Source: Carcharhinus amblyrhynchos (taxonomy: Eukaryota). Taken from it: a stretch of 64,000 nucleotides of DNA. The notes below the pieces were generated by a model. It saw only the letters and a program-made list of their open reading frames with translations. It was not told where the DNA came from and did not search any database. The stretch is taken from the NCBI GenBank assembly GCA_965287045.1, contig OZ336895.1, forward strand, positions 22,940,001-23,004,000, given 5' to 3'. This document shows positions 7,255 through 56,903 of this stretch, one piece after another (position 1 is the first letter of the stretch; the number at the start of each line of letters is the position of its first letter). The position numbers were made by a program, and so were the translations under genes.

Positions 7255-8966
7255 AAAGACTTGTGCTCCAGAACTTGCAGCGCCCCTAGCCAAGACCTCT
7301 CAGTATGGCTAGAACAATGGCATCTATCCAGCAACTTGAAAAATTGCCCAGGTATGTCCTGTACACAAAAAGCAAGACAAATCCATCCCAGACAATTACT
7401 GCTCCATCAGACTACTCTCAATTATCAGTAAAGTGATGGAAGGGGTCGCCAACAGTGCTATCAAGTGACACTTGCTAAGTAATACCCCGCTTACTAATGC
7501 TGTTTGACTGCATGCAGCATCAAGGAGCCCTAGCAAAACTGGAGTCAATAGGAATCAAGGGGAAAACTCTCTGCTGTTTGGAGTCATACCCAGCACAAAG
7601 GAAGATGTTTGGGGTTGCTGGAGGTCAATCATCTCAGCTTCAGGACATTATTGTCATTCAGTTCCTCAGGATACTGTCCTAGGTCCAACCATCTTTAGCT
7701 GCTTCATCAATGACCTTCCTTCTATCATAAGGCCAGAAGTGAGGTTGTTGGCTGGTGATTGCACAATGTTCAGCACCATTCATGATTCTTAAAATGTCCA
7801 AATGCAACAAAACTTGGACAATATCCAGTACTTAGCTGTCAAGTGGCAAGTAACATTCATGCCACACAAATGCCAGGTAAGGCCCATTTCCAATAAATGA
7901 GAAACTATCTGCCCTTGACATTCAACAGCACTAACATCCCTGAATCACCCAATACCAACACCTTGGGGGGTTACTATTGACCAGAAACTGACTTGGACTA
8001 GCCATATAAATACTGGGTGGAATTCTCCCAAAAAGACTTTTAAGTGCCGAATTCCTGTAAAAACTGGAGTAAATCCTGCTGCTTTTTTCAGTGAGATTTT
8101 CAAACTAAATCTCCCACATTCTATGCATCACAGAGAGCCTGAATGTGAATCTTGATAAAAAATCTGTGGGCCGGGCCTATCCCCACTGGACAGGCTGGCA
8201 GCATATCGCTGAGCAGGCCACTGCATGCGCTGATCTGCCATGGTGGAGATTTCTGGCACAGAGCTGACAACGCCAGAAATCCAGCGACTGGAGACATAGA
8301 GGCCGTGGCGCCCAGCAGGAAGCCCACCACACAGCCTCTGTTTCTGCTTCCTGGGAGAACCACCCTCACTATTGCTACAAGAACAGGTCAGAGGTTTGGA
8401 ATCCTGTGGCGAGTAACAAGCCTCTTGACTCCCCAAAGTCTGTCAACCAGCCACAAGGCACAAATCAACTGTGTGATGGAATACTCTCCATTTTCCAGTA
8501 TGAATGCAACTCCAGTAACTTTCAAGCAGCTCGAATCACTCCAGGACTGAAAAGCCCACCTGATTCCACACCATCCACAAACATTCACTCCTTTTACCAC
8601 TGATGTACAATAGCAGCAGTTTGTACCATCTACAAGATGCAGTGCAGGAATTCACCAAGGCTTCTTAGAAAGCACCTTTCAAACCCATGGTCACTATCAC
8701 CTAGAAGGATAAGTACAGCATCACATTGGAAAACCACTCTTTCAAGCCACTCACCATCCTAACTTGGAAATATATTGCCATTCCTTCACTGTTGTTGGGT
8801 CAAAGTCCTGGAATTCCCTCCCTAACTGCAGTATGAGTGCACCTACAACAAATGGATTCCAGTGGTTCAAGAAGACAGCTCACCACTACTCCTCAAGTAC
8901 AATTAGTGCTGGGCAATAAATGCTGGCTAAGCCAGTGATATCCACATACCTTAAATGAAAAAAAAA
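7255..8966 (+). mobile_element. Decayed CR1-clade LINE, RT plus 3' end, interrupted by a MITE
   Basis: Remnants of KIAQVCPVHKK, NY-PISLLSIISKVME, VPQ--VLGP, FINDLP and A-DCT motifs, with an A-rich tail at 8957-8966. Same family as 23535 and 24650. Confidence 0.85.
8015..8367. mobile_element. MITE nested in the CR1-clade LINE
   Basis: TIRs GGGTGGAATTCTCCCA / TGGGAGAACCACCC; ACT at both flanks (8012-8014, 8368-8370); the LINE reads through across it (ATAAATACT...ATTGCTACAAGAACAGG). Confidence 0.75.
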
Positions 8967-10260: not shown

Positions 10261-12094
10261 AGTTCAAGATGCAAAACATTAAATCGGTATAGAAGTCAAA
10301 AACTGGGGTTCTACTTTTAAGGTGTTCCATGGCAGTAGAACGAGTGACAAAAGCTAAAGCTGGCACCAGATTCATTTTGAGCCAATTTTTTTTTCAGTCT
10401 TCCAGCAAAAAGTATGACACCAGTGAACTTGTGACATAGGGAATGAAGAATGAAAATTGTTTTAAAAACAAGTATGAGATTTAACAAGTAACAGAAACTT
10501 TCTCTAAAAAGCCATGATGGTAGAATTAACAGATTAGCTTTCATGAATTGAGTAACCGTATCTTACATTGAGTTGTAATTAAAAATATTCATCTGATGGA
10601 AAACGTTACTAAAAACAGTTTTCATAAAAATTAATGAGTAATAGAGAACCAGGATGCTTGGAAGGCAGTGTGTGTGTGAAATCAGAAGACTGTGGTGATA
10701 TCTGTTTATAATTTGCAAAGATAGTCTGACTAACCCCATTGAAATAATCCAGAAGTTTTTTTATGTTCTCCGTGTTCTAATTAGCAAATCATTCATCCGG
10801 ATTCTATTGCAAACAGACCTTGCAAGTACATTTTTAAGCCAATTCCTTCATTGTGGGTAAAATAGCCCCTTGGCCCTGGGTGCATGTACATTTTCCACAT
10901 TCACAGGGAATGTTATGGAAATGGGTGGGCAAGGATTAGTTAATACACCAGCTCTGAAACGGGTTCTGCTAATTCCTTGCAGGAAAGTGTCAGGAGCAAA
11001 TCTGTCAAGAGCTTCCTACTGGAACATCTGGATCAGAGGAAAGTTTCCATTTGTGGGGCTGGGGGGAACCCTACTATCAGTCAATGGAGGAGGTAGCCAA
11101 CAAAATAAAGAGTCTCCCATGGACATTGGTCAGGGCAGTGTTGAGGAAGAAGTTACATGGCTTATGAAAGAGCACTAAAATCCAAATAAATTGCGTGCCT
11201 TACCCTGTTCGAGTACTAAGCATCAATGGTGACACATCAGCAATGCAACATAGCAAGCTGTTTCAATCTCTCACATCACGGACTTCCAAAACAAGCATGT
11301 CTACAAAGTTTTAGCATCAATGTGAGAACAGCAAAAACAAATGGTCCTATACAGCATTCATACGAGCATCTTCTGTCTGCTGTTTTTAGCATTAAGCCAT
11401 TAACTTAAAATAGTCAAGGCTATTCTGAAGCAGCAAATTAAATGTCATAGTCTAATATTGGAAACTGTAATTTCAAGGCATGAACGTATGTGTGAAATCT
11501 TATCAGCTCTTGATATTTTCAGGTGTCGGGACAATTTGTGAGTCCTGACCACACGTGGGTCAGAGGTGTGCCATGTGCCAACATGTCCCAGAAAGCCACC
11601 TCCATATTCATTATTCAATAAAGGATGGCCTTATTTCTAGGACAGCTTGTGGGAGACTGGGTCTGGGAGTCTCTACTTGTCTTTACCCCTTTATTTCTTT
11701 TGTATGAGTATGCATATTATGACCGTTGGCCACCAGAAGCAGTTACCATCACCAGCATCCACTTTCTCCCCCACTCGCCAACCCTCTGTCCTATGATTGA
11801 AATGTCCCTTTATTTAATAACTGTTGGTCATCCTGCAGGACACAAGAGGCCCAATGGGAGGGCCTGTAGGATTAGTTGGCTGGCAGTCCCACTGAAAGAG
11901 ATTGACACAGAGCAAAAATGAGACACTTTTGAAAGGCTGAGAAAAGTTTATTAAAAAATTAAGGCATGAAACTATCATAGCTAGAATTATGGAGGCAGAA
12001 CCTCTGAACAAGAATATTTTGGCCATGGCTGCCCGTGTTCCAACTAGATGGCTTTATGACAGTGCTACACAGACTCCAAGGTATCACAAGACTT

Positions 12095-12365
12095 GGGCTT
12101 AGCACTGCTACCTTATAGCGCCAGGGACCCAGGTTCAATTCTCAGCTTGGGTCCTTATCTGTGAGGAGTCTGCATGTTCTCCCTGTATCTGCATGGGTTT
12201 CCTCGCTCTGAAAGGTGAGCTGGTTAGGTGCATTGACCATGCTAAATTCTCCCTCAGTGTACCCAAACAGGCGGCAGAATGTGGTGACCAGGGTATTTGT
12301 ACAGTAACTGCATTACAGTGTTAATGTAAGCCTACTTGTGACACTAATAAATAAACATTAAACTT
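12095..12365 (+). mobile_element. HE1-type SINE, alternative-tail subfamily
   Basis: Same head and core, but tail CCCTCAGTGTACCCAAACAGG...GTGTTAATGTAAGCCTACTTGTGACACTAATAAATAAAC. Confidence 0.85.
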
Positions 12366-19231: not shown

Positions 19232-19308
19232 GGTCTCTTTGGTCGGAAAACATATGTCAGGAAGGAGGAATGGTCAAATATAGGAGAACAGATAAACATA
19301 CTGCTCTA

Positions 19309-19610
19309 GGACAGCATGGTAGTACTGTGGGTAGCATTGCTGCCTCACAGTGCCAGAGAACCGGGTTCAATTCCGGCCTTGATTGCCTACCTAACTGGAG
19401 TTTGCACACTATCCCCATGTCTGTGTGAGTTTCCTCCAGGTGCTTTGGTTTCCTCCCACAGTCCAAAAATGTGCAGGTTAAGTAACCCTGAGTGTCAGAG
19501 GGATTAGCGGGATAAATACATAGGGTTATGGGGAGAGGGCCTGGGTGGGATTGTTGTCAGTGCAGACTTGATGGGCTGAATGGCCTTCTCCTGCACTGTC
19601 AGGATCCTAT
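19309..19610 (+). mobile_element. HE1-type V-SINE, CR1-type tail
   Basis: Head AGCATTGCTGCCTCACAGTGCCAG...GGTTCAATTCC, V core, tail GGCCTTCTCCTGCACTGT. Confidence 0.9.
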
Positions 19611-19638
19611 GTAGCTGGTGATGAAATCTATGAATATC

Positions 19639-21930: not shown

Positions 21931-22510
21931 GTGAGAATCATGGGTCATCATGTATAAAAATACCGGGATTGAATATCTGCAGTGTTCTTTCATTTGTCCA
22001 CTGTAGCCTTGGTGGGAGATTTGCAGGTACCAGAGAGAAGCAGTATAAACATGAATATCCCACCAAAGTTACAGTAGATAATTAGGAGAACACCCACAAA
22101 AATTCAACCCCACGGTATTGTGGTAAGTAGGATGGATCCATTGAAGGACATAACTGTAATTTCTCCAGCAATAAAAGAAAATTTCATTTCTATTGAAAAG
22201 AATTACAATTACTTATACTACAGCACAATGATTACAATGTGTGGTTCTTTTGTTTGAATTAAGTATTGGAATAGTGCCATTAAGCATTAATTTGTAGCCT
22301 TGGACTTAAAGCTAAAATGTTTGTTTCAAGGTCCTGGGTGCGAGGTTCAAACCAAATTTTTCTTCTTCCTTCGTTCTTTTTCTATCCCTGATTGCTTGGT
22401 TCTACTTGCTGTATTGGTGTTCTCAAGTTCCTCCGATGCAACAACACACTGGCATTCCCTCAAATCCCAGCATCAACAGTTCCACATTCTCCACCACCCC
22501 CAGCCCCCAA

Positions 22511-22838
22511 TCATAGAATCATAGAAACTCTACAGTGCACAAGGAGGACATTTGTCCCATCAAGTCTGCACTAACAAAATCCCACGCAGGCCCTCTCCCT
22601 GTAACCCCTCGTATTTACGCAACTAATCCCCCTGACATTAAGGAGCAATTTAGCATGGCCAATGCACCTAACCTGCACGTCTTTGGAGTGTGGGAGGAAA
22701 CCGGAATACTCAAAGGAAACCCATGCTGACATAGAGAGAACAAGCAAATGCCACACAGTCATCTAACACCAGATTTAAACCTGAGTTCCTGGTGCTGTGA
22801 GGCTGCAATGTTAACCACTCTGTCATGATGCATCCCTG
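22511..22838 (-). mobile_element. HE1-type V-SINE, CR1-type tail
   Basis: Reverse complement of head, V core and TTCTATGATTCTATGA tail. Confidence 0.88.
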
Positions 22839-23534: not shown

Positions 23535-24400
23535 GATGCTGACTAACGATTGTGCCGTGTTCAGTACCATTTGTAACTCTTCAGGTACTGAAGCAGTCTG
23601 TGCTCGCAGGTAGCTAGATCTGGACTACCTTCAAGCTTGGGTTGATAAGTGACAAGTAACATTCGTGCAACACATGCCAGGCAATGACCATCACCAATGC
23701 AGGAGAATCTAACAATCCCCCCTTGGCATTATTATTGAAAATGCCCCCAGTATCAAGGTGCTGAGGGTTACCGTTGATCAGAAACTTAACTGGAGCAGCT
23801 ATGTAATTATTGTGGTGACAAGAGCACATTAAAGGGTGGGATTCTGCAGTGAGTAACTCGTCTCCTGACTCCCAAAAGCCTGTGCACCATCTACAAGGTT
23901 AAACACAGGGCTGAGGAATATTTTCCATTTGCCTGGATGAGTGCATCTCCAACAACACTCAAGAAACTCAACACCATTCAGGACAAAGCAGCCCACTTTA
24001 CCTCTACAGCATTCATCACTTTAAACAGTCACTCCCTCCACCACTAGCACCGAGTGGCAGCAGAATGGACCATGCACTGCAGCAACTCACCAATGTTCCT
24101 TTGACGGCCTCCAAACCCTCCAAATCTTATGACTTCTACCAGGCAAGCAAACGCATGGGAACACTACAACCTGCAAGTTCCTCTCCAAGGCATTCACCAT
24201 CCTGACTTGGAATTGCATCGCTGGGGCTTCATTGTCACTGAAACAAAACCTAGAACTTCTTTCCAGGCAGCATTATATCAGATGAACTGTAATATTTCAA
24301 GAAGACTACTCACCATCATTTTCTCACGAGCAGTTAGAGATGGGCAAATAATGCTGATTTTGCCAGAAATACTCAGATCTCAGGAATGCATAAAAATAAA
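23535..24400 (+). mobile_element. CR1-clade LINE 3' fragment
   Basis: Collinear with 7740-8966 (D-KLNW, TIYK, KKLNTIQDKAA; 3'UTR GGGAACACTACAACCTGCAAGTTCC; A-rich end). Confidence 0.8.
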
Positions 24401-24644: not shown

Positions 24645-25112
24645 AACTTTTTTCTTTGTAGGGATGTAAGCACCATTGGCCAGGCCACATTTATTCCCCA
24701 CCCCGGAATGCCATTAAAAAGGTTACAGTGAGGTCCCCTCTTAAACCACTTAAATCCATTTGGGGTAGGTGCACGCACAGTGCTGTTAGGTGGGAAGTTC
24801 CAGGTTTTTGAGAACTGAGTGAAGGAATCGCGATATAGTTCCAAATCAGGATGTGGGTTAAGGAGAACTTGCAGGTGGTGGTGTTTCCATGTGCCTGCTG
24901 CCATGTACTTCCAGGTGGTAGAAGTTATGGGTTTAAAACATGCTGCTGAAGGAGCTTTGGAGAGTTGCTGCACTGCGCCTTGTAGATGCAACACATTGCA
25001 GCCACTGTGTGTTTGTGGTGACAGCAGTGAATGTTTAAGGTAATTGGTGGGGTGCCAATCAAGTGGGCTGCTCTGTCCTGGATGGTGTCGAGTTTCTTGA
25101 GTATTGTTGGAG
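24645..25112 (-). mobile_element. CR1-clade LINE 3' fragment (antiparallel to the preceding copy)
   Basis: Minus ORF reads LKKLDTIQDRAAHLIG...VAAMCCIYK; T-run at 24646-24656 is the poly-A tail. Confidence 0.85.
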
Positions 25113-25420: not shown

Positions 25421-26695
25421 GTATTTGTTACTTTATTTCCAAAATTATCACTTGGAATTGAAAGTAATATCTTTGACCAGTTTGCGTACTTCGCAAATGT
25501 ATTTTTCAAATTAGGCAAATTACCTATTTCCAGAAATGTTTTAGTATTTTTCTGATAATTGGCTTGTCAATTTTGAGTCAACTGTATACATTTCAGAGTT
25601 CCCCCGGTGACCTACCCTCAAAGTACCACTAAAGGTCAGAGAATTGAACATCCCAGTTTTACAGTTCCTGTTACAGTGCAGCATACCAAGCATTGGAAAC
25701 GTCAACCAAGGCTCTTGCTGCTGGCCGCTATCCATCAACTTTTTCCAGAAAGTGTTCACCTGTGAGTGCCTGTGCTTCAGGCAAGTTAATTGGTTTCAGC
25801 TGTGAGTCCCTAAGCAGCTGAACAGTTCACAAATACCCACATACAAAGAACTCAAAACAAACTGCATTTTGTGCAATCAGGTATCAATATAATATGATAC
25901 TGTAACCCAACAACTCAGCAACATACTATTATCACCCTGCTCTAAGTATAATTCTACTATTAAAATTAGTTATATTTTCCAGAGTAAAAGAAGTGATATC
26001 ATACTCTATATTTATGAATCAAATGAAAACTATTTTGAATCCCAACCGGAAGCTTCATTGACTTGGTTAAGGAGGCAATACCTCAAAGTAGACAGTAATG
26101 TACCACAATTCTTCCAAAACATCCTTTATGAAATTCTGCACAGAAGACTTAATGGACAAAGCCGTGCAAATTCAAGGGAAGCCTGGAAATGAAAGCAGTT
26201 TTATGAAGAGTTTAGCAGCAAAGATACATATTAGGAAAATGATGTTGAAGTGGGGGAATCCCTATGTGGACTGCCCCAGGGACTGTGGTTGTTGATAGGA
26301 CTTCTATTATTACAACCTAAATTCAGAAGTTTAGTGAAAACTGGTCAAATTCACAGATATACTAAACTGATTAGGGGGAAAGTACACTATTAAACTCAAA
26401 GGCTACAAGAACATATAATCCCATAAATCTAAATCATCTCAAATTCCTACCTAAACTCAGACAGACGAGCAATGGAATCACTATATCCATACAGTGGCTT
26501 GGGAAGGGATGCATTGGAGACACAATTCCCATTTTTGAATATTACCCAGTGATGATGCTGAAAAGATAGTCTGCAAAACATCAGATGAATATAGGATCAA
26601 GTTGAGCTTTGATGCTCCATGGAGAATTAGAGTTATCAGCAAACCTATTTAAAATGACCACTTAAAATATCAAGGATGCTGGGGGTTCACATTGA

Positions 26696-26999
26696 TCATA
26701 GAATCCCTACAGAGCAGAAGGAGGCCATTCAGCCCATCAAGCCTGCAACGACAACAATCCCACCTAGACCCTATCTCCATATTTACCACATATTTACCAT
26801 GCTAATCCCCTGACACTAAGAAGCAAGTTTGCACGGCCAATCAACCTAAGTCACACACTTTCGAGCTGTGGGAGGAAACCAGAGTACCCAGAGGAAACCC
26901 ACGCTGACACAGGGAGAACATGCAAACTCCGCACGGAATCAAACCCGGGTTCCTGGCACTGTGAGGAGCAGTGTTAACCACTGTGCCACCATGCTGCCC
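26696..26999 (-). mobile_element. HE1-type V-SINE, CR1-type tail
   Basis: rc: GGGCAGCATGGTGGCACAGTGGTTAACACTGCTCCTCACAGTGCCAGG...CCTTCTGCTCTGTAGGGATTCTATGA. Confidence 0.92.
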
Positions 27000-34157: not shown

Positions 34158-34461
34158 AGTTTATTTATTTATGTCACAAGTAGACTTGCATTAACACTGA
34201 AATGACGTTACTGTGGAAATCCCCCAGTCGCCACACTCTGGCGCCCATTCAGATACACTAAGGGAGAATTTAGCACGGCCAATGCATCTAACCACCATGT
34301 CTCTTGGTCTGCAGGATGAAACCGGAGCACTAAGAAAAAACCCACGCAGACACGGGAAGAGCGTGCACACTCCGCACAGACAGTGACCCAAGCCAGAAAT
34401 TGAATCTAGGTCCCTGGCACTGTGAGGCAGCAGCGCTCACCATTGTGCCATCATGCTGCCC
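34158..34461 (-). mobile_element. HE1-type SINE, alternative-tail subfamily
   Basis: rc head GGGCAGCATGATGGCACAATGG, V core, tail CAGTGTTAATGCAAGTCTACTTGTGACATAAATAAATAAAC. Confidence 0.9.
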
Positions 34462-35275
34462 TGGGTTCAACAGTCAAAGCCAGCTGAATTGATCAAACTG
34501 CCACGTGGACACTGCTATTTGGTTAACTGATACATCAACAACTGTTGCTACCCGAGCTAACTGTGAAGTATTCTAGTTCTGAGTTACTTAATTTATTCAC
34601 AGTAAGCCACACACTCAAGAATCTGCATCAGATAGATCAATATCTGCAGATATCTTTTTGCAAGAATGCTAATGAAATCTAACGGCAGGTATGAGACTGA
34701 AGATTTGATTAATATTGACCACTATTCTGTGCCAGCTCCGTGTTCCTTTGTTGGCTGGTGCCACTATTTTAAGTTCAGTGATTATTATGTTCCCATCATC
34801 ATCCCTTGGGATACCAGCTAGGAACATAAGGATTCTTCATATTTTGAAAAATTAAAAACCAGTTTATAATGGAATAGATATTATGGTCAAATCAGTTTCA
34901 AAAATACACAATTATTTTCTCAAACTTAATACGTTATAATGCAAAGTATTACTTTGCAATAAAATTACATCTAACAGAAGATTTTTTTTAGAAGTTGTAT
35001 TATAACTCTCTTTCTCCCATCTGCCAGCCCCACTCAGATCCAAGGATGACATTGCAGCTTCCTTATCCCTCAATCAAGTTCAGACCATTCAAATACTAAC
35101 CCCATTCTGTTTCGAAGCTACTGTGAGATCTTAGTGCTGAAACTCCAGTCTTCATTTTTCTGGCTCTATTCTTATCTGTCCATTCTTAACCAGAAAATCA
35201 CCTGCATTGACTTCCTTTGCAAGAAGTCTCACAACATTAGGTTAAAGTCCAAAAGATTTACTTGGTAGCACAAGC

Positions 35276-35310
35276 CACAAGCTTTCTGAGCACTACCCCT
35301 TCATCAGGTG
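35276..35310 (-). ncRNA. Minimal hammerhead ribozyme motif (Penelope pLTR), degenerate
   Basis: rc CAC-CTGATGA-AGGGGTAGTGCTCA-GAAA-GCTT-GTG; stem II is imperfect. Confidence 0.6.
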
Positions 35311-36614
35311 AGTCGGAGTTCTGTTCACAAACACAGCATATAAAGACACAAACTCAATTTACAAAATAATGGTTGGAATGCGAGTCTTTACAGGTAATCA
35401 AGTCTTAAAGGTACAGGCAATGGGAGTGGAGAGAGGGCTAAGCACAGGTTAAAGAGATGTGTATTGTCTCCAGCCAGGACAGTTAGTGAGATTTTGCAAG
35501 CCCAGGCAAGTCATGGGGGTTATAGATAGTGTGACATGAACCCAACATCCCGGTTGAGGCTGTCCTCATGTGTGCGGAACTTGACCATCAGTCTCTGCTC
35601 AGCAACTCTGCGTTGTTGTGTGTCACGAAGGCCGCACTGAAGAACACTTACCCGAAGATCAGAAGTCAAATGCCCATGACCGCTGAAGTGTTCCCCAACA
35701 GGAAGAGAACACTCTTGCCTGGTGATTGTCAAGTAGTGTTCATTCATCCATTGTTATAGCGTCTGTATGGTCTCCCCTATGTACCACTGGGACATCCTCT
35801 CCTGCAGCGTAAAGGGTAGACAACGCTGGCCCAGTTACAAGTGTATGTACCATGTACCTGGTGAATGGTGTTCTCATGGGAGATGATGGCATCCATGTCG
35901 ATGATCTGGCACGCCTTGCAGAGGTTGCTACGGCAGGGTTGTGTGGTGTTGTGGTCACTGTTCTCCTGAAGGCTGGGTAGTTTGCTGTGGACAATGGTCT
36001 GTTTGAGGTTGTGCAGTTGTTTGAAGGCAAGAAGTGGGGGTGTGGGGTTGGCCTTGGCGAGATGTTCATCTTCATCAATGACATTTTGAAGGCTCCAGAG
36101 AAGATGTCTCCGGAGCTGCTGCAGGAAAGGATGTCCTGAGGCATGGTACACTGGGAAGACCATTCAGATGCTACAAGGACGAATGAATGAACACCACTCA
36201 ACAATCACCAGGCAAGAGTGTTTCCTTCCTGTTGGGGAACACTTCAGCGGTCACAGGCATTTGACCTCTGATCTTCAGGTAAGCGTTCTTCAAGATGGCC
36301 TCACGACACACAACAGTGCAGAGTCGCTGAGCGGAGACTGATGGCCAAGTTCTGCACACGAGGACAGCCTCAACTGGGATCTTGGGGTCATGTCACACTA
36401 TCCGTAACCCACACGACTTGCCAGGGCTTGCAAAATCTCACTCATTTCCTGGCTGAAGACAATACACATCTCTTTAGCCTGTGCTTAACCCTCTCTCCAC
36501 TTCCATTGTCTGTACCTTTAAGACTTGATTATCTGCAAAGACTCACGTTCCAGCCATTATCTTGTAAATTGAGTTTGTGTCTTTATATGCCCTTTTGTGA
36601 ACAGACCTCCCACT

Positions 36615-36649
36615 CACCTGATGAAAGGGCAGCGCTCTGAAAGCTTGTG
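36615..36649 (+). ncRNA. Minimal hammerhead ribozyme motif (Penelope pLTR)
   Basis: CAC-CTGATGA-A-AGGGC-AGC-GCTCT-GAAA-GCTT-GTG: core boxes, 5-bp stem II, palindromic AGCT stem III, CAC/GTG stem I. Confidence 0.75.
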
Positions 36650-36949
36650 GCTTGTGCTACCAAGTAAACCTATTGGACTTTAACCTGGTGCTGTGAGACT
36701 TCTTGCTGTGCTTACCCCAGTCCAACGCTGGCATCTCCACATCTGACTTCCTTTCCCACTCCTGCATAATCCACTGAGTTTCCTCTGGTGTCCCCTGAAG
36801 ATCTATGCTTACCTTGTATTTCTTACTTAAATGCTGCCCCTCATAGAAACATATCAGGTTCAACATGCATGCTGGTGACACCCCAACCCTACCTTCCAAC
36901 AATCTCTCTTGACCCCCTCCACTATCTTTAAATTATCAAACTGCTTCTA

Positions 36950-37748
36950 TAACATCCAATATTGAACAAAGAGAAATTCCTTTCAATTGAACATTGGGAA
37001 GACCAAAGGCATTGACTTCAGTCCTCACCATAAACACCATCCCTCTTCCTGGAACTGCACAATCCTAAACCAGACTGTTTTTGATCTTGGTGTTGTATTT
37101 TACCCTGAAATGAGGTTCTGACCACAATGTCCACAGCTACCTCAATTCAGGTGCTGCTCAAACCCTCATCCATACCTCTGTTATCTCTCGATTTGATGAT
37201 TTTAACAAACTTCTAGCCAGCCTTATACCTTCCAACCCCATAATCTCTTGGTCTTCCAAATCTCTTCAAATCCAAACTTGGACCAAGTTGCATTTACTCA
37301 TCAGCCTTATGTTTGCCAATCTACATTGGTGCTCAAGTAAGTAACTCTTCCTTCCTTGCTTTCAAATCTTTGTTTTCAAATCTCCATAAGGCCTCACCCT
37401 TCTCTACCTCCGCTACCTCCACCAGCCCAACAATCCTACAAGATTTCAGCACTAGTCCAACTCCTGGGTCTTATGCATTCCAAATTTGAACTGCCACACC
37501 ACTGACAACTGTGCCTTCAGTTATCAATGTCCTAAGCTCTGGAATTCACACCCTAAACATCTCCAACTTCTCTCTTTCTTCCTTGAAGACACTATTTGAA
37601 ACAGACCCTTTTTTCTAAACTATTGGTCACTGCCATAACATCTCCTTAGATGACTTGGTATCAAAATTTAATTGAAAATACTCCCATGAAGCCCCTTGGG
37701 GTGATTTTGCTACATTCAAGACGTTATATAAATGCAAGAAGTTGTTGT
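36950..37748 (+). mobile_element. Decayed L2 LINE 3' end
   Basis: LQLNIGKTK, LIH--V-SR-D and LHW remnants; terminus GACGTTATATAAATGCAAGAAGTTGTTGTT. Confidence 0.75.
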
Positions 37749-39877
37749 TCACTAAAATGCAGATGTGAATATAATTTTTTTCATGACTACCTAACTACCA
37801 AAAGATGCGATGATGAGCATAATCCGAACCACCCATCTCTGCCAGCCCTCCTAGCGTGTAGCGGTATAAGTTTGATCAAGCAAAGAAGGGACAGATCAGT
37901 GTTATACAACAATCCATAAATTTGGTTAAATCTGTTTAAAACTTGCCAATGGAAACAGTGTTTGTAGATAACTGGTACTGTAGTCTTACTTCATTTTCTA
38001 CCTGCCTGAATTGTTTCTGAGGCAAAACCAATTCTCGCTATCCCCATGGTTTCCTGTGCCCAGGTTCTGCAATATTACTTCTGACGAGACACATCGATAC
38101 AGCTGAAACATGATCAATATGTTCTGAATCAGTAACTTGATCTAGTACACACAGTACCTGATGTAAAGCCAGCAGCTGCTCCTGCCATTTACTGTAGCAA
38201 AGCCATGTGATTTCTTGTTCAACAATCTACGGTACTTGTCAATTTCATAAACACAAAATGAGCTGACTGGAGATCTAGACAAAGGGCCCTAAGAAAATAA
38301 TGGCTGGAGATAAAGGAACTTAAAAAATATTGATAAGCATGAATCCAGTACAGAGAACGAAAGGGAAGACAGGGGCTGACTTTAACTATTACTGTTCTGG
38401 CATATAGTTCCACTGGAAACCATTAAGTATGAGAAGAACATCGCACCAAAGCATTAAGCGATAATGTCAACATCACAAATAATCAATTCAGCTAATACCT
38501 CTTCCAGCACACCTGGAAAAGTTGGATGTTCTTGTAACTTGCACATTACTTAAATCATTCACAGCTTCTCCCTGTTAAGTAAGCTACAATTTCCCACGAT
38601 TTGTCCAAGAAGAAATCAATAGTCCAGAGACTGCTGCCGGAGTAACAGTAAAACTAATGGTGCTCATCATTATTCATGTAAAAATGCTACAGCAACTTCA
38701 GATAAGGGGCAGATGCATGGATAAACTCAAATTTCCAAACTGCTTCATGCAAATACCATCTTACTCTCTACCTTATCATTAAGATGAGTCAAATGGTAGG
38801 AAGTCACTGTATTTGCACAGTAAATACAAGTTGGACCCATGCCAAAAAGTTAAAAAGCCTCAACCATTTTGTCAACCACTGGTACGAAATTTAACTATTA
38901 TGGCTGTGGAGATTCATTCTTCTAAGTTATCATTGTTGTTGGAGATTTTAGAAACATTTGTATACTTTTCCTTTACTTCTATCGTTTTATTCCAATTTTT
39001 TTAAAAATTCTCCTTTTGTACTTGATGTGGCACTGAATTCACCCAGTCTCATTTACACCTCCTTTGCTACCCTTGCACTGTTTATTTCACAATTCTTCAA
39101 TCTGATTGGTTAAAGAGATACATAAATCTTTGCCCTGTGAAGTCTGATCTCAGTATGCTCTTACTGAAACTTTATCAATTCACATTTTCAGCAACTTGGA
39201 ATACAAACATTTAAAAATCCGACTATCACAGGCAAATATAACTGACAGCAGAACTGGTAAATGCCCTGCTGCAATATGATCTGAGCCAATATCCATTAAA
39301 ATTAATTTTTGTTTAAAGAGCAGTCTTGTCCTTGGTCTTCTACCTTTTGAATATTGAAAAAAGTGTTGTGAATGTACAGAATATGCCGATGACTTGCATT
39401 CTGCTGAGAGCTTTCTATTTCTTGTACCCAGAGTTATTTCCAAAGTTCAAACATCCTTTTTATATAAATTCATATCCTGGCACATACTTGAACAAAGCAA
39501 ATCTTTTGGACAGCACTTGACATTTTTAAAAATCTTCTGCGCCACTGAATTAAACTTAAGTCTCATTTGAAATCAAATTCATAAGAGTGAATATTATTAT
39601 CCCACTACTACTCGCTATTGACAATATGGCCAACTCAAAACTAATTTTTGCCATGCACCACTTGTGTAACATTTCAGATTTTGGAGTGTTGCTCAGTCCT
39701 TTTTGCCAAATGAATATATATGTTTTGTAAATGTACTCTTGCCTCAATGTTGTACCCCTTCCAACACTTTCATGTTCTGTTTTTAAGCTGAACACTGATT
39801 AATCTTTTCTATCCCTGTTGCAACTCAACCTAATAGCTGAGATGCTGCGTTTTACATCTGAACTCTCTGGCAGATGT

Positions 39878-40185
39878 GGGCGGCACGGTGGCACAGTGGA
39901 TAGCAATGCAGCCTCATAGTGCCAGGGACCTGGCTCGATTCCTGGCTTCGGTCAGTGTGTGGAATTTGCACATCCTCCCTGTGTCTATGTGGGTTTCCTC
40001 TGGGGGCTGCAATTTCCTCCCACAGTCAAAAAATGTGCTCGTTAGGTGCATTGGCTATGCCAAATTTTCCCTCAGTGTACCCAAACAGGTGCCTGAGTGT
40101 GGCAACTAGGGGGATTTCACAATAACTTCATTGCAATGTTAATGTAAGCCTATTTGTGACCAAAAAATAAACTTTATTTTACTTT
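39878..40185 (+). mobile_element. HE1-type SINE, alternative-tail subfamily
   Basis: GGGCGGCACGGTGGCACAGTGG head, V core, tail CCCTCAGTGTACCCAAACAGG...GTTAATGTAAGCCTATTTGTGAC...AATAAAC. Confidence 0.92.
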
Positions 40186-41419
40186 ATACTTGTCCAATGA
40201 AGTATTGTGTTGAATTATCTCAGTTTACAGATTGAAAACATTCATATTACCCAAATTTGAAACACTAACTGTCAGGAATAATATTTGGGGACTTGATGAT
40301 CTCAATTGTACTGGTTATTCCATAAGAAAAATCTATGGATTAGCCAAAGGCACCATGCAACTCTGACAGTAGTGCCTGCTAACTCTATAATAGTTGGTTA
40401 ATAGCATGGAACAGGATGGCCAGAATTAGATCCAAGGTGCCTGGCAGGGTTTTTGTTGATTTCAGTAGTTCAGCGGTACTTCCAGTGAACTATCTGCAGT
40501 TGTGGATCAAGTCCCAAGATGGCCTGTCACTCCAATCCATTGTTTGAGTAGAGGATTACTTTTGTCATTTCTCACCAAATGCACCAAAGTGAAAGCTTAT
40601 GGCAGGATCCCTTAACGAAGAAGTTAAAGTTGGCTCCCCACACTGTGAGCATTGAGGATTCCAGAGACTAGGCTATCCTTGCTTCCAAGCTGTGGGAGGC
40701 TGCAGGGAAATGAGCTGATCCTGCAAAGGAAGTATTAAAAATAAAGAGTGAAGGAATTTAGGATTAGAATAAAGTAAAACTAAAATGTATGCTCAACTCC
40801 AGAACCTGCCAGATAATTCATATTTGTCTGTGTCAAAATATTTAACTTTCTTTGAGGAACTGCAGGTGCAGATTAACACTTCTTATTCTAGGACTGTATC
40901 CAATCAATTGCTCCAGCAAAAATCCAGCTTCATTTGCCAATGCAATTCAACTCCTTTGGAGGCATTCCTCAGTCTGGAGATTAACTATTATCCTGTAGTT
41001 GGCATGTTGGAACCAGCTATGCAATATCTGTGATATTCATTTAAATGGAGACACAGTCACACACAAAGGGAATTTCACTAAATTAACAAGCCTGAAATTA
41101 AAGATGATTCAAAACTGCAACTCCTGTAATAAAAGTATCTCTTGAAAATGGGAGTGCCAAATTGCCTCCATTGGACCATAGTATAAAGAATAAGCTACTC
41201 TAAAAATGCTTATTTTTTGTATGGGGAAATATAATAAATTAACTACCATGAATTTATTTCATACTGTTTTAAATGAAAGTGAAAACTATGTCCAACTATT
41301 GTTTTGCAAACTAATGTAATGACAAACCAAACTCAAAGAAAGAGCTGAAGAATGCAGAAAATAGTATTGGAGAAAGACACACTATTTTCTTTAGAATTTT
41401 CTAAGTTAAATAGAAAATT

Positions 41420-41550
41420 GTAGAGGTTTTAGGACAGCCACACTCATCCGGAAACTGTAAAATCCCGCCCAAGGTCAACGAACCTTCCCATGTTCCACCC
41501 CTCGCCAGCTCCGATTCCTGTGGTGGGCAGGCCAGTAAAATTTCAGCCAA
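41420..41550. mobile_element. MITE (same family as 3327-3452)
   Basis: Shared AAAATCCC(G)CC..GTCAAC..TTCCCATG..CC..GATTCC..GGGCAGG..AAAATTT order. Confidence 0.6.
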
Positions 41551-42114
41551 TAAATTCTGCAAGGGCAAATGCCTTAAGAGGGTAAAATTAACCCGTTTTG
41601 TTCTTAATCTTTGACAATTCCAAGTTTTGTTTCTAAATATTTATTTGTTTCTCTAAGTCTAAGTAAATATTTTACTTATTTTAGTTTGTCTGTAAGCTGC
41701 ACTTTCATATTCTCCTTGCCAAGGTAGTTCTAAATACAGTACTAATGCATGTTCAGTGCAGAGGTAACTACTGTTGGATAATTGCTAACTTGGAACATAC
41801 ATCAACTGCAAGGATGGCCTACTTAAAAAGGTACAATTACTGAATCTCGAGGATGAAGTCACCTGATTGTAACGGTTGTGAAATCACCGAAAGAGAAAAT
41901 GGGATTAGAAAATACTTGAATCATCTGACTGCTGTACACATGAGGCACTCAACACACACTGACTCTATGGTGGCAGTGCAAACTTAGAGCTCTAGCCATC
42001 TTAATGTCAAGACAGCTAATGTTTTGGAACCACACAGAATGTCAAAGGATTGGCTGTAAGTTTTTCCAAAATTTTTATTTTACTTGTAGGCTTTTAGAAA
42101 AACATGGTTCATAG

Positions 42115-42452
42115 TCATCATGTGGTGCAGTAGGTAGCATCCTTGTCTCTAAGCCAGAAGTTCTGGGCTCAAGTCCCACCTCAGGAATTGATGGCCAAGG
42201 AAGGTACGTTCATAACGTGGTCAAACAGGTTGAACATGTCAACTTGTAAATCCTTTCAAAGATGCCAATGGTTGGCAATAAGAACAGGAGAGAATTCTGG
42301 TCAGCCACAGTTTTTGTGGCGTGGTACCCCTCAAGCTACAAGCCCCCATGGTGACAGACTAGCGTTCTGTTCCAGGAATTACTAGCTACAGAAGAGATAA
42401 AAGTCTGTCTTAAGACACCACTCGATGTAAAAAGAGAATTGGAATTGGAATG
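42115..42452 (+). mobile_element. tRNA-derived SINE, second family (near full length)
   Basis: GTGGTGCAGTAGGTAGCA A box, GGCTCAAGTCCC B box, body shared with 27938; ends in (GAATTG)n. Confidence 0.7.
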
Positions 42453-44595
42453 ATTCATAGCAAGCCCTATATAGTTTTTAGTACCCTGCTTATTTACTTC
42501 CTACCTCTGTGTGTAGCACATGGAACAAAACATGCCAATAACAAGACTCACTATCTTGTTTTGAACAATTCATTGTAAACTCTGAATGACATCCCTTAGG
42601 ATCAAACTAATTGCTTTTTGTTTTCTCAAATCCAATCTATACACAAATACAAAAATAAGATTTCTGGTTTCGGGTTTTTATCTTTAATGTAGCCTCAAGA
42701 AACAGACTGCAAAATGTACTGGTCTTAATATGTTGGAACATGCAAGTTTTGGTACATTGACAGTATAATGAATTCTGTAGTCATCATAATTTGATCTAAT
42801 GCAATAAGAGCTCCGACCTGAAGATTCTATTGCAGTAAGAAAAAGAAGGTAGAATTGAGAAGTGATTAGCATAGAACAGTTTGTGGCAATTATTCATCTT
42901 GTACAAAGATCTCAGCAATGGTCCGTATGATCAGAATCTTGAAAATACTTAACATAAATGACTAATCCAAACTAGGCCTTACACAGATATGTATCTTTTA
43001 GTTAATTTACTCATCTTTTCATAAGTGAACTTGAAGGGCTGTGAAAACACTGTCGAAGGAAAGACTTGGTTTCATTTCAATAAAAGATGCTGAAGGCAGG
43101 ATGCTCATTACCAAAGTACCTAACACTTTAGCTCTGCTGCTGTTCTTGCACATTTGCAGGCTGCAAATGGTCACTAATCTTGAGCATGAAGCCAGAGGGC
43201 TGCAGAGAAAGGTGGTCCGAAATCTCTGATAAAACGCCAGCAAAGTTACACAATGACAACTAAAGCATATTGATATTGAACTGCTGTCAGTAGCAATGTG
43301 CTGAAGGGAAACTCCAGCAATATTATTAAAATATATTATTGATCGATTGTCATTTACTAGCCAACATTGCATGGCTGCTACATTGGTCCTGAAAGGAATA
43401 GAAACATGGCAGATTTCATTTCAAAGAAAAATATTTTCCAAATGTCACAGAAGTTGATGAAGTAAACTGAGCGATTCAACTCTTGCCCTGAATGTGTTGA
43501 AAGGGGTGAGAAAATTGATTTCCTGAGACACTGTGTAGGAGTAGAGACTCCTGCTTCATCTCGCTCAAATACGTCATTACTAATGAAATGACATGTTAAT
43601 CACACATCAAAAACCAGCCTCTTCCAGTATGAAGATTTAAAAATAGATCAATTCTCCATGTAGAATTTTCTTTATGCTGTTATCTACTCAAGGTAACATA
43701 ATTTAGTAATAACGTACATAAATACAACTTTTGGATTCATTATCAGGAGCTTCCCCAACTACAAATAATGATAGCTGATTGTGAGCTGATATGTTAAGCA
43801 GCTTCTCAAACAAAATGCTGCCCATTTCTTTTACTATAAAATCTTGTCATAATAAAATGATTTCAATATCTTCTCAATATTTACTGACCTTAAATTTTGC
43901 AGCTTGAGGAGTGAGCCCCAGCTTAGATGATCACATTCCTGCCTCCAAGTCAACAAGTAACACATTTGAGTCCAATTCCAGACCCAGCCTCCGTAACACC
44001 ACCACCACCAAATCTCTCGCTGAATGTCAGCCCATTGATTAGGGACCGAAGTTTTGGCCAGCAAGCAGAAGGCCAAAACTTCGGCCCCTAAACCATGGGC
44101 TAACATTTAGTGAGATAGTCACAGTAGGAATGGGGTGTTTGTATCCACAACACCCCCACCCACCGAGATCAGCTCCCCCGCCCAAGTCAGATTATGTATT
44201 ATTGTAATTAGAGAAATACCCCAGATCATGAACTGCTGGATGCGAAAGCATTGGAACCAATATTGTGTCCTCGTGCACACCCAGGAGAACATGCATTTCT
44301 ATCAGTTCCTGGACATTCCTCCCACCTTGAACAATCTCCATTTTATTTTTCCTTTTCCCCATTGCTATAAAAGAAAGCATTTGATCATCCCCCAACTTCA
44401 GTAATAATACCCTTGTCTTGCCAATTCAAATACCAGTTCCCTCACACCTCACCTAATGGAGTACAATTAAGAGTCCATAGCAGATATTTGAACTATTATT
44501 TTACATCACAAAATTTTTCCCACAGGAGGTAACAATTATTTGAAATGTTAGAAAATGAAGTTGTACAACATTTGTTATGGCTGAGATAAATGAAG

Positions 44596-44797
44596 TGGAG
44601 ATGCCAGCGCTGGACTGGGGTAAACACAGCAAGAAGTCTCACAACACCAGGTTAAAGTCCAACAGGTTTATGTGGTAGCAAACACCACTGGCTTTCGGGG
44701 CTTTGCCCCTTCGTGAAGGGGCAAAGCCCCGAAAGCTAATGGCGTTTGCTACCACATAAACCTGTTGGACTTTAACCTGGTGTTGTGAGACTTCTTA
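44596..44797. mobile_element. Miniature palindromic Penelope-derived element
   Basis: 15-bp TSD CTGAGATAAATGAAG (44581-44595, 44798-44812); ~86-bp inverted arms centred at 44713/44714; sequence matches the ends of the 35219-36743 element. Confidence 0.92.
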
Positions 44798-46497
44798 CTG
44801 AGATAAATGAAGCCAACTGTCTCGTAAAGAAATAAACTATCCGTTGCTATTGAATTACAAAACCCATTCGCCTCTATTGAGATCCAACAGCATTCAGCGT
44901 GTTTATTTCTTGTTACACTGTTGTCTCCTATCTATTCTATACGGGCCGCCAGACAATCCAAAAGCAAATACAGATAAATCATTGCACAAGATATGCTGAG
45001 AAAAAGCCTGTTATGAGCAAATGACCTGAAATGTGAACCATTCCTGAGTGAGACTTGCCAAGTTCAACTGACGCCACACCTCAAATTATAAATCCTTAAA
45101 GAACAATAGATAATATTTTATCTCTTACAGTGTGAAATCCCTTGTTTTTTTCCAACAGAGAGCAGTAAAATAATACTATGCTGGGAAGAACATCACAGGG
45201 ATATTACAATCTTTGCTGTTTTACGCAGTGATCCACCCAGAATTTGTGCACTGCATCCCAGAAATTGTGAACTGCATCCTCAAAGAAAGACCCTTTTTCA
45301 AGTCTTGGTATATATTTGTTCCCTCAGTATTGCTATAGAACATATAATGGATTAGCAGTTTGATACCAACTAGTGTGATAGTTGGGGTAGTCCAGAAACG
45401 TATGTAAACAAGAAGATGTCGTTTCCAACTCAGATCAGAATGGAAAGTCACCTCGTAGAGTAAATGGGTCTTTTGATAAGCTCAGATGTGAACAAAATGG
45501 ATATTGTCTCTTTAACCTCGAAATTTGAAATGTACTTCACTGGCAGAACTGAGAAGCTCTTATTTGCATCCAGTTAGTGCAGTCCCGCTGGAATCAAGGA
45601 GGCTGATTGCACAGGAACATGAAGTTCCAGGAGAGCAAATGTCCACTAAAATAACTTACACATTAAAAAAGATCAAATTTTACATTTCAATGTGAGATAA
45701 AAGTATTAAAATTTCCACTCTGGAAATTGTTGCTGTCAACATTAGTAGCTGAATTTTAATACACCCAGGTTCAGTATTTTAATGTAAACATGGAGTGGTC
45801 TATTTTAAATGGGTTAATACTTCAGTTAAAATAGCTGTCAAAGAAATGTTATTCTGTGCTTCATATTTTAGTTTGTTAATATCAGTAACACTAATTTTTC
45901 TTTAATTGTGTAGTACAAATGGTCACAGGAAATATTTGTAATTTAGCAGACAGTTTTTGACAAGATTTGACAAGAGCATCTGGTTTAACAACTACATAAT
46001 TCTGTGAGTTATGAAAATCTGTTCAATAATGCTTTTCATTAGTTCTTATAATCTCATTTGTTAGTCAGAATAAAAAATATACTCAGCAAGTTTTGGCAGA
46101 TTAAAGATACATTTCAGGGGTTGGATTAAAATAGTTTTAAATAGCTGACCTGTAAAATCAAAACTTTAGCACCAAAAAGAATATTTCATTATAATAATGA
46201 AGTATTCTCCATCAGTTCCTTGACACATTCAGATAATGTATTTCCATGTGAATGTCGCTTGCTACAATTCAACAATGGGACCTTGTCAATGGACCTTGCC
46301 CATTATTCATCTAAGTGTTTTGCAGTCGCACAAGTCCAGTGCAGTATACTGTACATAATCATTTATTCAGATCACCGTTTCAAATAAAGCAGAAAACTTT
46401 GATATAAAGAAACTTTGCAAGCTATTCGTAGTGACATTAGGCTAATATGATGTAAAAAAAGGCACAAGTTAAACAATGAAAGCTAATCATGATGTCA

Positions 46498-47055
<558 letters not shown>

Positions 47056-49399: not shown

Positions 49400-49754
49400 A
49401 ACCCACCTTTATATAGTACTTTTAATGTCACAAAATGTCCCAAAACCCTTTACCAGATTGTAATCAAGCAAAAACTGATTCTAACCTAAACCAAAGGAGA
49501 TATTTGAACAGGTGAAAAATACTTTGTCAAAGAGATAGGTTTTAAAGGGGGAGTGAAAGGTAGAAAGACGGAATGGCTTCAGATGTGAACTGAAGAGGTC
49601 AAGGCATGGCCAACAACAGCAGGTGAACAGAGTAGAGTTGCAAAATGGTCCAGAATTGGAGGAACACAGAGATCTTGGGGAACTGTACCACTGGATGATG
49701 TTACAAAGAATAGGGAGGGGCAAGACCATGCCAAGAAGATGAAGCAGACATTTC
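49400..49754 (-). mobile_element. L2 3' remnant
   Basis: Minus ORF ...FKTYLFDK...; terminus ...CTATATAAAGG; related to 36950-37748. Confidence 0.55.
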
Positions 49755-49760
49755 AACAAT

Positions 49761-52174
49761 TCCCAAATATTGACTGGAATCTCCCTAGGGTAAGAGGTTT
49801 AGATAGGGAGGAGTTTGTTAGGTGTGTTCAGGAGGGTTTCTTGACACAGTATGTGGATAAACCTACAAGAGGAGAGACTGTACTTGATTTGGTATTGGGA
49901 AATGAACCTGGTCAGGTGTCAGATCTCTCAGTGGGAGAGCATTTTGGAGATAGTGATCATAATTCTATCTCCTTTACAATAACATTGGAGAGAGATAAGA
50001 TCAGACAAGTTAGAAAAGTGTTTAATTGGAGTAAGGGAAATTATGAGGCTATCAGGCAGGAAATTGAAGGCTTAAATTGGAAAGAGGTTTTCTCAGGGAA
50101 ATGTACAGAAGAAATGTGGCAAATTTTCAGGGAATATTTGTCTGGAGTTCTGCATAGCAACATTCCAATGAGACAGAGAAGTTATGGTAGGTTACAGGAA
50201 CTGTGGTGTACAAAGGCTGTAATAAATCAGGTCAAAAAGAAAAGAAAAGATTACAAAAGGTTCAGAGAGCTAAGTAATATTAGAGATCTAGAAGAGTATA
50301 TGGCTAATAGGAAGGATCTTAAGAAGGAAATTAGGAGAGCCAGAAGGGATCATGAGAAGGCCTTGGTTGGATTAAGGAAAACCCAAGGCATTCTACAAGT
50401 ATGTGAAGAGCAAGAGGATAAGATGTGAAAGAATAGGACCTATCAAGTGTGACAGTGGGAAAGTTTTTATGGGACCAAAAGAAATAGCAGAGGTGCTTTA
50501 CTTCAGTATTCACTATGAAAAAGGATCTTGGTGGTCGTAATGCAGACTTGCAGCAGACTGAAAAGCTTGAGCATGTAGATATGAAGAAAGAGGATGTGTT
50601 GGAGCTTTTGAAAGGCATCAAGTTAGATAAGTCGCCAGGACTGGATGGGATGTACCCCAAGCTACTGTGGGAGGCGAGGGAGGAGATTGCTGAGCTCTGG
50701 TGATGATCTTTGCATCACCAATGGAGACGGGAGAGGTTCCAGAGGATTGGAGAATTGCGGATGTTGTTCCTTTATTCAAGAAAGGGAGTAGAGATAGCCC
50801 TGGAAATTATAGATCAGTGAGTGTGACCTCAGTGGTTGGTAAGTTGATGGAGAAGAACCTGACAGGCAAGATTTCTGAACATTTGGAGAGGTATGACATG
50901 ATTAAGAATAGCCAGCATGGTTTTGTCAAAGGCAGATCATGCCTTATGAGCCTGATTGAATTTTTTGAGATATGACTAAACACACTGATGAAGGAAGAGC
51001 AGTAGATGTAGTATATATGGACTTCAGCAAGGCATTTGATAAGGTGCCCCATGCAAGGCTTATTGAGAAAGTGAGGGGGCATGGGATCCAAGGGGACATT
51101 GCTTTGTGGATCCAGAACGGCTTGCCCACAGAAGGCAAAGAATGGCTATAAATGGGTCATATTCTGCATGGAGGTCGGTCACCACTGGAGTGCCCCAGGG
51201 ATCTGTTCTGAGACCCTTACTCTTTGTGATTTTTATAAATGACCTGGATGAGGAAGTGGAAGAATGGGTTGGTAAGTTTGCTGATGACACAAAGGTTGAA
51301 GGTGTTGTGGATAGTGTGAAGGGATGTCAGAAGTTGCAGCGAGACATTGATAGAATGCAAGATTGGGCGGAGAAGTGGCAGACGAAGTTCAACCCAGATA
51401 AATGTGAAGTGGTTCATTTTGGCAAGTCAAATCGGATGGCAGAATACAATATTAATGGTAGGGCTCTTGGTAGTGTGGAAGATCAGAAGGATCTTGGAGT
51501 CCGAGTTCTTATGACACTCAAAGCAGTTGCACAGGTTGAAGCTGTGGTTAAGAAGGCGTATGGTGTACTGGCCTTCATCAATTAAGGAATTGAGTTTAGG
51601 AGCCGAGAGATAATGTTGCAGCTATATAGGACCCTGGTCAGATTCCACTTGGAGTACTGTGCTCAGTTCTGTTTGCCTCATTACAGGAAGGATATGGAAG
51701 CCATAGAAAGGGTGCAGAGGAGATTTAGAAGGATGTTGCCTGGATTGGGGAGCATGCCTTATGAGACTAGGTTGAGGGAGCTCGGCCTTTTCTCCTTGGA
51801 GAGACGAAGGATGAGGGGTGACCTGATAGAGGTGTATAAGATGTTGAAAAGTATTGATCGAGTGGATAGTCAGAGGCTTTTTCCCAGGGCTGAAATGGTT
51901 GCCACAAGAGGACACATGTTTAAGGTGCTGGGGAATAGGTACAGAGGGGATGTCAGGGATAAGTTTTTCACTCAGCACGTGGTGGGTGCGTAGAATGGGC
52001 TGCCAGCAACAGTGGTGGAGATGGATTTGATAGGGTCTTTTAAGAGACTTTTAGGTAAGTACATGGAACTTAGTAAGATAGAGGATTACAGATAAGCCTG
52101 GTAATCTCTAAGATAGGGACATGTTCGGCACAACTTTGTGTGTATTGTGCTGTAGTTTTTCTATGTTTCTATGT
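49761..52174 (+). mobile_element. 5'-truncated CR1/HER1 LINE, 2.4 kb (EN C-terminus + RT), disabled
   Basis: FPNIDW, LDLVL, GDSDHN, KSPGLDG, NYR-VS, QHGF, DFSKAFDKVPH, GVPQGSVL, FADDTK, LEYC, RGDLIEVYK; frameshifts and stops; (TTCTATGT)2 tail; 6-bp TSD AACAAT (49755-49760, 52175-52180). Confidence 0.97.
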
Positions 52175-56631: not shown

Positions 56632-56903
56632 AGGTCATTTATTGGTATCACAAGTAGGATTACATTAACACTTCAATGAAGCTACTGTGAAAATCCCCTG
56701 GTCGCCACACTCCAACACCTGTTCGGGTACACTGCAGGAGAATTTAGTGTGACCAATGCACCTAACCTGTGGTAGGAAGCCGGAGCACCCAGGGGAAACC
56801 CATGCAGTACCAGGAGAACATAGAAACTTCATACAGAGACAGACCCAAGCTGGGAATCCAACCAGGGCTCCTGGCGCTGTGATGCAGCAGTGCTAACCAC
56901 TGT
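56632..56903 (-). mobile_element. HE1-type SINE, alternative-tail subfamily
   Basis: rc CAGTGGTTAGCACTGCTGCATCACAGCGCCAGG...GTGTACCCGAACAGG...GTGTTAATGTAATCCTACTTGTGATACCAATAAAT. Confidence 0.88.

Follow-up and report, generated by a model that had tools for sequence, protein, structure and literature searches.

Inverted, truncated copies with a tail on one side are the standard picture of insertions made by Penelope-like elements (PLEs) (PMC8557442, PMC8969392, PMC2377424), and the published pattern is a 5'-truncated, inverted copy that bears a 30-40-bp tail on one of its ends (PMC8557442). The closest described systems are the inverted-pLTR insertions of Penelope in D. virilis and of Pen2a/Pen3a in Adineta, which are head-to-head and 5'-truncated, have a 30-40-nt tail at one end and a TSD of variable length, and carry a palindrome at the junction (PMC3846280, PMC8557442, PMC2377424). 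In one of these accounts the tail is 31 bp, the TSDs are 8-10 bp and palindromes lie at the inverted junctions; these palindromes were read by Arkhipova et al. 2013 as self-priming (PMC3846280). For a PLE from Anolis, both target strands are cut and extended, and reverse transcription starts at two sites that are a tail length apart (PMC11167929). In the same system ribozyme cleavage is dispensable in vitro, where most of the substrate is unprocessed RNA (PMC11167929). Pairs of minimal hammerheads on opposite strands, about 100-700 bp apart, have already been reported as well (PMC4209133).

In the window that we analysed, the whole stretch of 64 kb, a 202-bp insert at 44596-44797 lies between two TSDs and has unique sequence on either side. 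The left TSD (44581..44595) and the right TSD (44798..44812) are identical at 15 of 15 positions and cannot be extended, in agreement with the first-pass annotation, which had placed a 15-bp TSD around the insert. This 15-mer has only two occurrences in the window, and the chance of such a match at a fixed position is 2e-9. Two arms of 86 bp (44627-44712 and 44715-44800) pair at 82 positions, with four mismatches and a 2-nt centre. The outermost three pairs are supplied by TSD bases, so the earlier description of a ~31-nt extension and ~86-bp arms stands for the mismatches and the centre, while the arms within the insert shorten to about 83 bp (with three internal mismatches and one terminal) and the tail becomes 31-34 nt. 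This unpaired tail, the 3' extension of the PLE (44596..44629, minus strand), is found on the left arm only and falls 3 nt short of the 37-nt tail that a 1.5-kb copy in the same window carries. It is followed by the left arm (44630..44714, minus strand), a pLTR 3' end with hammerhead A6/N7, helix II, GAAA and the 3' strand of helix I, and by the right arm (44715..44797, plus strand), a tail-less pLTR 3' end that stops at the same place as the arm without a tail in the 1.5-kb copy. The arms meet head to head at 44713..44714. As RNA, the hairpin folds at -164.3 kcal/mol (z -20.8), a value that 0 of 200 shuffles equalled, and the minus strand of the region would fold at -175.8 kcal/mol over 271 nt. 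Among the local hairpins of the window it ranks top, with a score of 74 against 27 for the next. The 202-bp hairpin is a real, very short inverted PLE insertion.

A BLASTN search of the insert against the window found one other element only, at 35219-36743. Between the 202-bp copy and the arms of this 1.5-kb sibling the identity is 83-86%: the left arm and tail of the short copy match 36622-36739 at 101 of 118 positions, and the right arm of the short copy matches 36622-36705 at 70 of 84. The sibling is bracketed by an 11-bp TSD (left copy 35208..35218, right copy 36744-36754), and TSD length thus differs between the two elements. Its longer arm (35219..36106, minus strand, about 888 nt without a tail) holds a broken C-terminal ORF fragment with a Cys linker and GIY-YIG, the 3' UTR and a complete minimal hammerhead with C3 at 35307. 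Its shorter arm (36117..36743, plus strand, 627 nt) ends in the 37-nt tail and also has a complete minimal hammerhead, with C3 at 36618 and cleavage after 36646. The sibling arms join within the ORF, about 500 nt upstream of the position at which the short element is joined in the core. This join has an inverted repeat (36092..36116, plus strand) with a 9/10 match and a 5-nt loop, which is snap-back-like and has its like at 11 of 4000 random points; a quasi-repeat naturally present in the ORF may have been its seed. The tail-less ends of the two elements agree within 2 nt. A stem-loop across the two pLTR ends was no better than in shuffles (z -0.76 and +0.46). Thus, the asymmetric architecture that had been proposed for both elements, an inverted pLTR with a short terminal extension on one side only, is present in each.

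The insert is the 3' end (pLTR) of a shark PLE, and the Penelope origin first proposed for the hairpin is upheld by its identity to the sibling ends and by the RT-bearing shark relatives of the sibling. A protein search with the linker region of the sibling gave 47 matches among 71 candidates. The best were RT-bearing proteins of Mustelus asterias with 83% identity, the top relative carrying RVT_1, and the next-best relatives were from Heptranchias and Scyliorhinus (Heptranchias perlo and Scyliorhinus torazame in RefSeq). The host of the element would accordingly be, most likely, a shark close to Mustelus. The sibling ORF fragment shares with these shark Neptune-clade proteins a Cys-rich linker before GIY-YIG. 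In its endonuclease part, 64 of 87 residues match the C-terminus of P0008, and a C-x4-C-x2-C linker precedes the endonuclease in the sibling, P0001, P0008 and P0011; the Pfam match to GIY-YIG in the sibling is weak (E 0.066, below the cut-off). A Cys linker ahead of the endonuclease is a trait of the Neptune and Nematis clades (PMC8557442). The linker therefore points to a Neptune-type source PLE, with RT phylogeny being what separates Neptune from Nematis. The features of EN+ PLEs are all found here, namely a pLTR 3' end, inverted 5'-truncated copies, a variable TSD and a tail at one end, and both tails (31-34 nt in the 202-bp copy and 37 nt in the sibling) fall in the range of 30-40 nt. The short copy has a GC-richer helix II than the sibling in both of its arms. 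Because of this common difference and the identity of 83-86%, the 202-bp copy likely derives from another subfamily than the sibling. The shark PLE family behind it may already have been named.

To place the junction, we composed a hammerhead descriptor from the published minimal consensus (PMC4209133 supplement) after inspection of the sequence. It matched the window exactly twice, at the two arms of the sibling, and gave 0 matches in 200 simulated windows. The hammerheads resemble the minimal ones of other PLEs in the extra base after A9, G10.1-C11.1, the palindromic 15.2/16.2 and the short helix I (Cervera and de la Pena 2014, PMC4209133). This minimal register replaced a long-helix-III register, which we rejected. 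In it, each short arm starts at A6/N7/G8 and retains helix II and GAAA, and both lack the helix I 5' strand and the upstream CUG; they are therefore missed by the core descriptor. In the right arm G8 is at 44715, helix II at 44718-44730, GAAA at 44731-44734, U16.1 at 44737, H17 at 44738 and the helix I 3' strand at 44739-44743. The left arm also lacks U16.1, which is changed to C at 44690. The position homologous to the cleavage site is after 44738, and the centre of the hairpin, within the CUGANGAH core, lies 24-25 nt 5' of it. The first-pass annotation had put the inversion point inside the ribozyme core, with stem II and GAAA kept and the upstream core missing, and the minimal register places it there too. 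A complete core (CUGANGAH, helix II, GAAA-NN-UH and helix I) is absent from both arms of the 202-bp element. Because the 5' core is lost, the ribozyme is predicted to be unable to cleave: neither arm could form an active core, and it would be a passenger. Rfam gave 0 matches at gathering score across the 64 kb, and among 18 sub-threshold matches in 35200-45000 no hammerhead family was found at either element.

Some information on the missing part of the core comes from P0049, a 117-aa ORF that is one of two phmmer matches among 1.84 billion proteins and contains a real pLTR frame (22 of 47 residues align). The other match, P0048, is spurious, with a tandem repeat at 26% identity. Read back from its residues, P0049 would end at the tail-less position, cross the core upstream, form a complementary helix I and have an N7 that is not U. 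Its end coincides with the tail-less end at codon resolution, and the left arm reads A6-C7-G8 unchanged, which fits a non-U N7. The centre would then have one of two origins: a left arm ending at A6 met a right arm beginning at G8, or two arms that both began at C7 were joined blunt and one CpG was lost afterwards. With an N7 of U, a single transition away from a perfect palindrome would account for the centre as well. Of the helix I variants, the right arm shares one with P0049 and the left arm one with the sibling, and a single mutation explains either.

How does this insertion compare with the known classes? Compared with the Drosophila and Adineta insertions, it holds part of a pLTR only, with no ORF and no direct pLTR pair. 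The palindromes at described PLE junctions are 18-38 bp inside longer copies in these accounts, whereas here the entire insert is palindromic. In contrast to the opposite-strand hammerhead pairs reported in PMC4209133, the two hammerheads are fused at zero distance and have both lost the helix I 5' strand and CUG. Non-LTR retrozymes (bioRxiv 10.64898/2026.07.22.740005) are likewise short, non-coding, pLTR-derived and hammerhead-related. However, as described there they are head-to-tail tandems of at least two units with complete ribozymes, an arrangement that the 202-bp element does not have; it is head-to-head, single and, by prediction, catalytically dead. MITEs and MITE-derived hairpin RNAs are similar in being short palindromic inserts with a long RNA hairpin. 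MITEs have inverted repeats at both termini and a DNA-transposon origin, whereas one end here is an unpaired tail of 31-34 nt, the TSD is 15 bp and the origin is a PLE, that is, retro. The Made1 MITE is linked to the mir-548 hairpin RNAs, and the mir-548 match of Rfam at our hairpin (59 bits, threshold 90) is structural.

We suggest that the hairpin is probably a single, immobile insertion that a shark PLE protein produced through two target primings in an intron of a nuclear factor I (NFI) gene. The GIY-YIG endonuclease would nick both strands, 15 bp apart, and each 3' end would prime reverse transcription, one at the end of the tail and the other 31-37 nt upstream, in keeping with the two start sites of the Anolis PLE. 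Both cDNAs would cross the uncut or rejoined ribozyme site and halt after about 117 and 83 nt, and repair would then join the two cDNA ends almost blunt. Crossing of the cut site in this way agrees with the dispensability of cleavage in vitro (PMC11167929). The median length of new PLE insertions is 128 bp in Chlamydomonas (PMC9977147), and arms of 83-117 nt are therefore ordinary. Of the two copies, the sibling tells more about the mechanism. Since its longer arm of 888 nt has no tail and its shorter arm of 627 nt has one, neither arm is a full copy of the other; pure fold-back is thus ruled out for it, and two cDNAs must have been made from RNA. Fold-back by the RT, the mechanism offered in the first-pass annotation, fails for this element, whereas two target primings explain both elements of the window. 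The argument is built on these two inverted copies. Carrying the Anolis result over to a Neptune-type element would be an analogy, as the Anolis protein is of the Poseidon clade, with an RT start inside the ORF (PMC11167929). The ends of the short element show a partial primer-template match: the first five bases of the right TSD match the start of the tail at 4/5, and the four target bases beyond the tail match its missing end at 3/4. Counting against this, the Anolis study reports that primer and start site share no homology (PMC11167929).

The one odd feature of the 202-bp element is that its two arms stop symmetrically, directly ahead of helix II. If truncation is assumed to be exponential, two independent stops within 2 nt of each other have a chance of about 0.3-2.5%, and some coupling step is therefore needed in the short element. 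The simplest would be that a single RNA, whose 5' end lay at this point either naturally or through breakage, was copied twice. A symmetric stop would follow directly if only one cDNA was started, from the end of the tail, and this came to a halt in the core, folded and copied itself, with the endonuclease resolving the second end at the tail-less site. We regard this as possible but unlikely. It is formally open to the 202-bp element, where the tailed arm is the longer one; self-priming has been proposed (PMC3846280), as has endonuclease resolution of the tail (PMC8557442); and the 9/10 inverted repeat at the sibling junction indicates that hairpin-templated synthesis does occur at joins. However, it is unable to generate the sibling element, a loop of 0-2 nt is hard to prime from, the folded cDNA end leaves the last 3-5 bases unpaired, and the copy must end exactly at the tail-less end of the family. 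Alternatively, and compatible with either origin, a defined RNA 5' end or an RT stop 4-5 nt before helix II could yield the same minimal palindrome repeatedly. Both arms do end within 2 nt at A6-G8, just ahead of a helix II of -9.3 kcal/mol, and the three internal arm differences (positions 16.1, 1.1 and 1.5) cluster around the cleavage site (P 0.013-0.047), although this test is post hoc and the stop itself is one case, also chosen post hoc. In the exponential model a copy stops in the 8-nt core with a chance of 1-3% and in the whole ribozyme with 4-19%. The two arms of the sibling and P0049, three of three other arms, all cross the core, and the stop position is not the cleavage site. RT usually stalls upon entering a stem and not after leaving it. 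We therefore hold a recurrent stop to be doubtful, and the fold-back hotspot at the ribozyme that was first proposed finds no support in one copy, with the sibling joined about 500 nt away in the ORF and P0049 running through the core.

Secondary collapse, in which a longer inverted copy like the 1.5-kb element was cut as a cruciform and rejoined without its centre, has in its favour that long inverted copies are present in the window and that long palindromes are unstable. Yet revised palindrome centres are usually asymmetric or contain a spacer, while this join is symmetric to 2 nt, and the arm length is normal at birth, which makes such a collapse improbable. It is very unlikely that the hairpin belongs to a MITE-like, non-autonomous family that propagates itself and is moved as one unit by a PLE RT, the second proposal of the first-pass annotation. 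Non-autonomous PLE derivatives are known, as in the Chlamys-N elements and retrozymes, and both cis ends are present. Against this, the ribozyme has lost its 5' core, the pLTR would sit in an 83-bp duplex of the transcript, and the Anolis RT needs RNA about 55 nt downstream of the start sites (PMC11167929), which here is host flank; retrozymes, as described, consist of tandem units whose ribozymes are complete, and a MITE carries a terminal repeat at either end. The junction was not found a second time in the 64 kb or in searches elsewhere, none of which covered a shark genome. The phmmer search of 1.84 billion proteins contained no second junction, a weak test, and a search of 5.8 billion proteins with the junction-spanning open frame, also a weak test, confirmed 0 of 2 candidates among longer proteins and gave none of similar length. 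The pLTR motif had 0 matches in GTDB genomes, a weak test for a non-coding shark repeat, the PLE protein had 29 pattern matches there with 0 confirmed, and blastn against plasmids gave 0 matches. The element motifs were found neither in the paper texts searched nor in the PMC8557442 supplement (0 in each), and the literature covered, which included few subscription papers, held no account of short palindromic shark PLE copies or of junctions in a hammerhead core. A fold-back artefact of sequencing or assembly is highly improbable. Sequencing reads are known to contain artefactual palindromes, and assemblies have difficulty with inverted PLE structures (PMC8557442), but all four arm differences are transitions, one of them at a CpG, and these, together with the perfect TSD, the one-sided tail and the unique flanks, argue for a genuine locus, as was first supposed. 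Compared with these possibilities, a one-off truncation, which the first-pass annotation had kept as its own null, is the more likely reading.

The host of this insertion is presumably an NFI intron, with the hairpin about 1.7 kb past the splice donor of a 532-bp NFI exon (46503..47034, minus strand; Pfam PF10524 E 1e-26, MH1 E 1e-12; splice signals). The 202-bp insertion is most likely ordinary and dead on arrival, and its only plausible present effect would be a long duplex in the host pre-mRNA. As a single locus it matters little, since it is a PLE insertion of a described kind in its shortest form. As a clean footprint, the 202-bp copy bears on the choice between dual priming and self-priming in PLEs: taken together, it and the 1.5-kb element speak for two target primings rather than for self-priming alone. 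By analogy, the two-start-site signature of a Poseidon element would then extend to a Neptune-type shark family. Short copies of this kind can be mistaken for MITEs or for precursors of miRNAs. A recurrent junction would place an RNA end, or an RT stop, within the ribozyme and would thereby be informative on the role of the PLE hammerhead in vivo. More tentatively, hammerhead positions 6-8, which precede helix II and are separate from the cleavage site, could be where the shark PLE RNA has a defined 5' end or strongly stops the RT; both target-primed cDNAs would run off there, so that the same palindrome of about 200 bp is gained at unrelated loci. If this were true, the ribozyme fold would set the structure of insertions without cleaving, and with every intronic copy a host pre-mRNA would acquire a long duplex.

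The 1.5-kb Penelope-like element (PLE; 35219-36743) is an inverted copy whose two arms are identical at 518 of 597 aligned columns, the remainder comprising 52 transitions, 16 transversions and 11 gaps. Its arm divergence is about three times that of the 202-bp element, the short head-to-head PLE insertion in the same window. The junction of the 1.5-kb PLE (36092-36116) carries an inverted repeat matched at 9 of 10 positions around a 5-nt loop, and one codon that homologues lack. It looks like the product of snap-back or of quasi-palindrome correction.

All three internal arm differences of the 202-bp element group around the ribozyme cleavage position (44684-44690 and 44737-44743), a weak signal. 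On the presumed host-transcribed strand, three of its four arm differences turn into G-U pairs, which is also weak. A 532-bp nuclear factor I exon lies on the minus strand (46503-47034), and its end may be similar to NFIC.

A second strong hairpin in this neighbourhood lies 465 bp upstream of the 202-bp element (44015-44115). Its 45-bp arms enclose a loop of 11 nt, and it folds at -65.9 kcal/mol (z -13.2). BLASTN gives no similarity between it and the PLE end, and it is possibly an old palindromic element. Old retroelement fragments may account for the inverted repeat pairs at 8579-8707, 23947-24062 and 24908-25112 (72-77%). A LINE-like element fragment spans 49589-52050; it matches RT at E 4e-13 and, weakly, an endonuclease. 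Numerous copies of a dispersed repeat of about 300 bp occur in both orientations (1703-2017, 12084-12356, 19308-19611, 22504-22836, 26694-26999, 34158-34462, 39885-40160 and 56632-56903), and this repeat, which has a tRNA-like start, is probably a SINE.

PLE sequence is also found in a shark protein model, the Mustelus asterias RefSeq entry P0003, named NOXP20-like, whose N-terminal ~170 residues consist of the PLE linker and endonuclease, as in the 1.5-kb PLE. This PLE-derived start could represent either exonisation or an annotation fusion.
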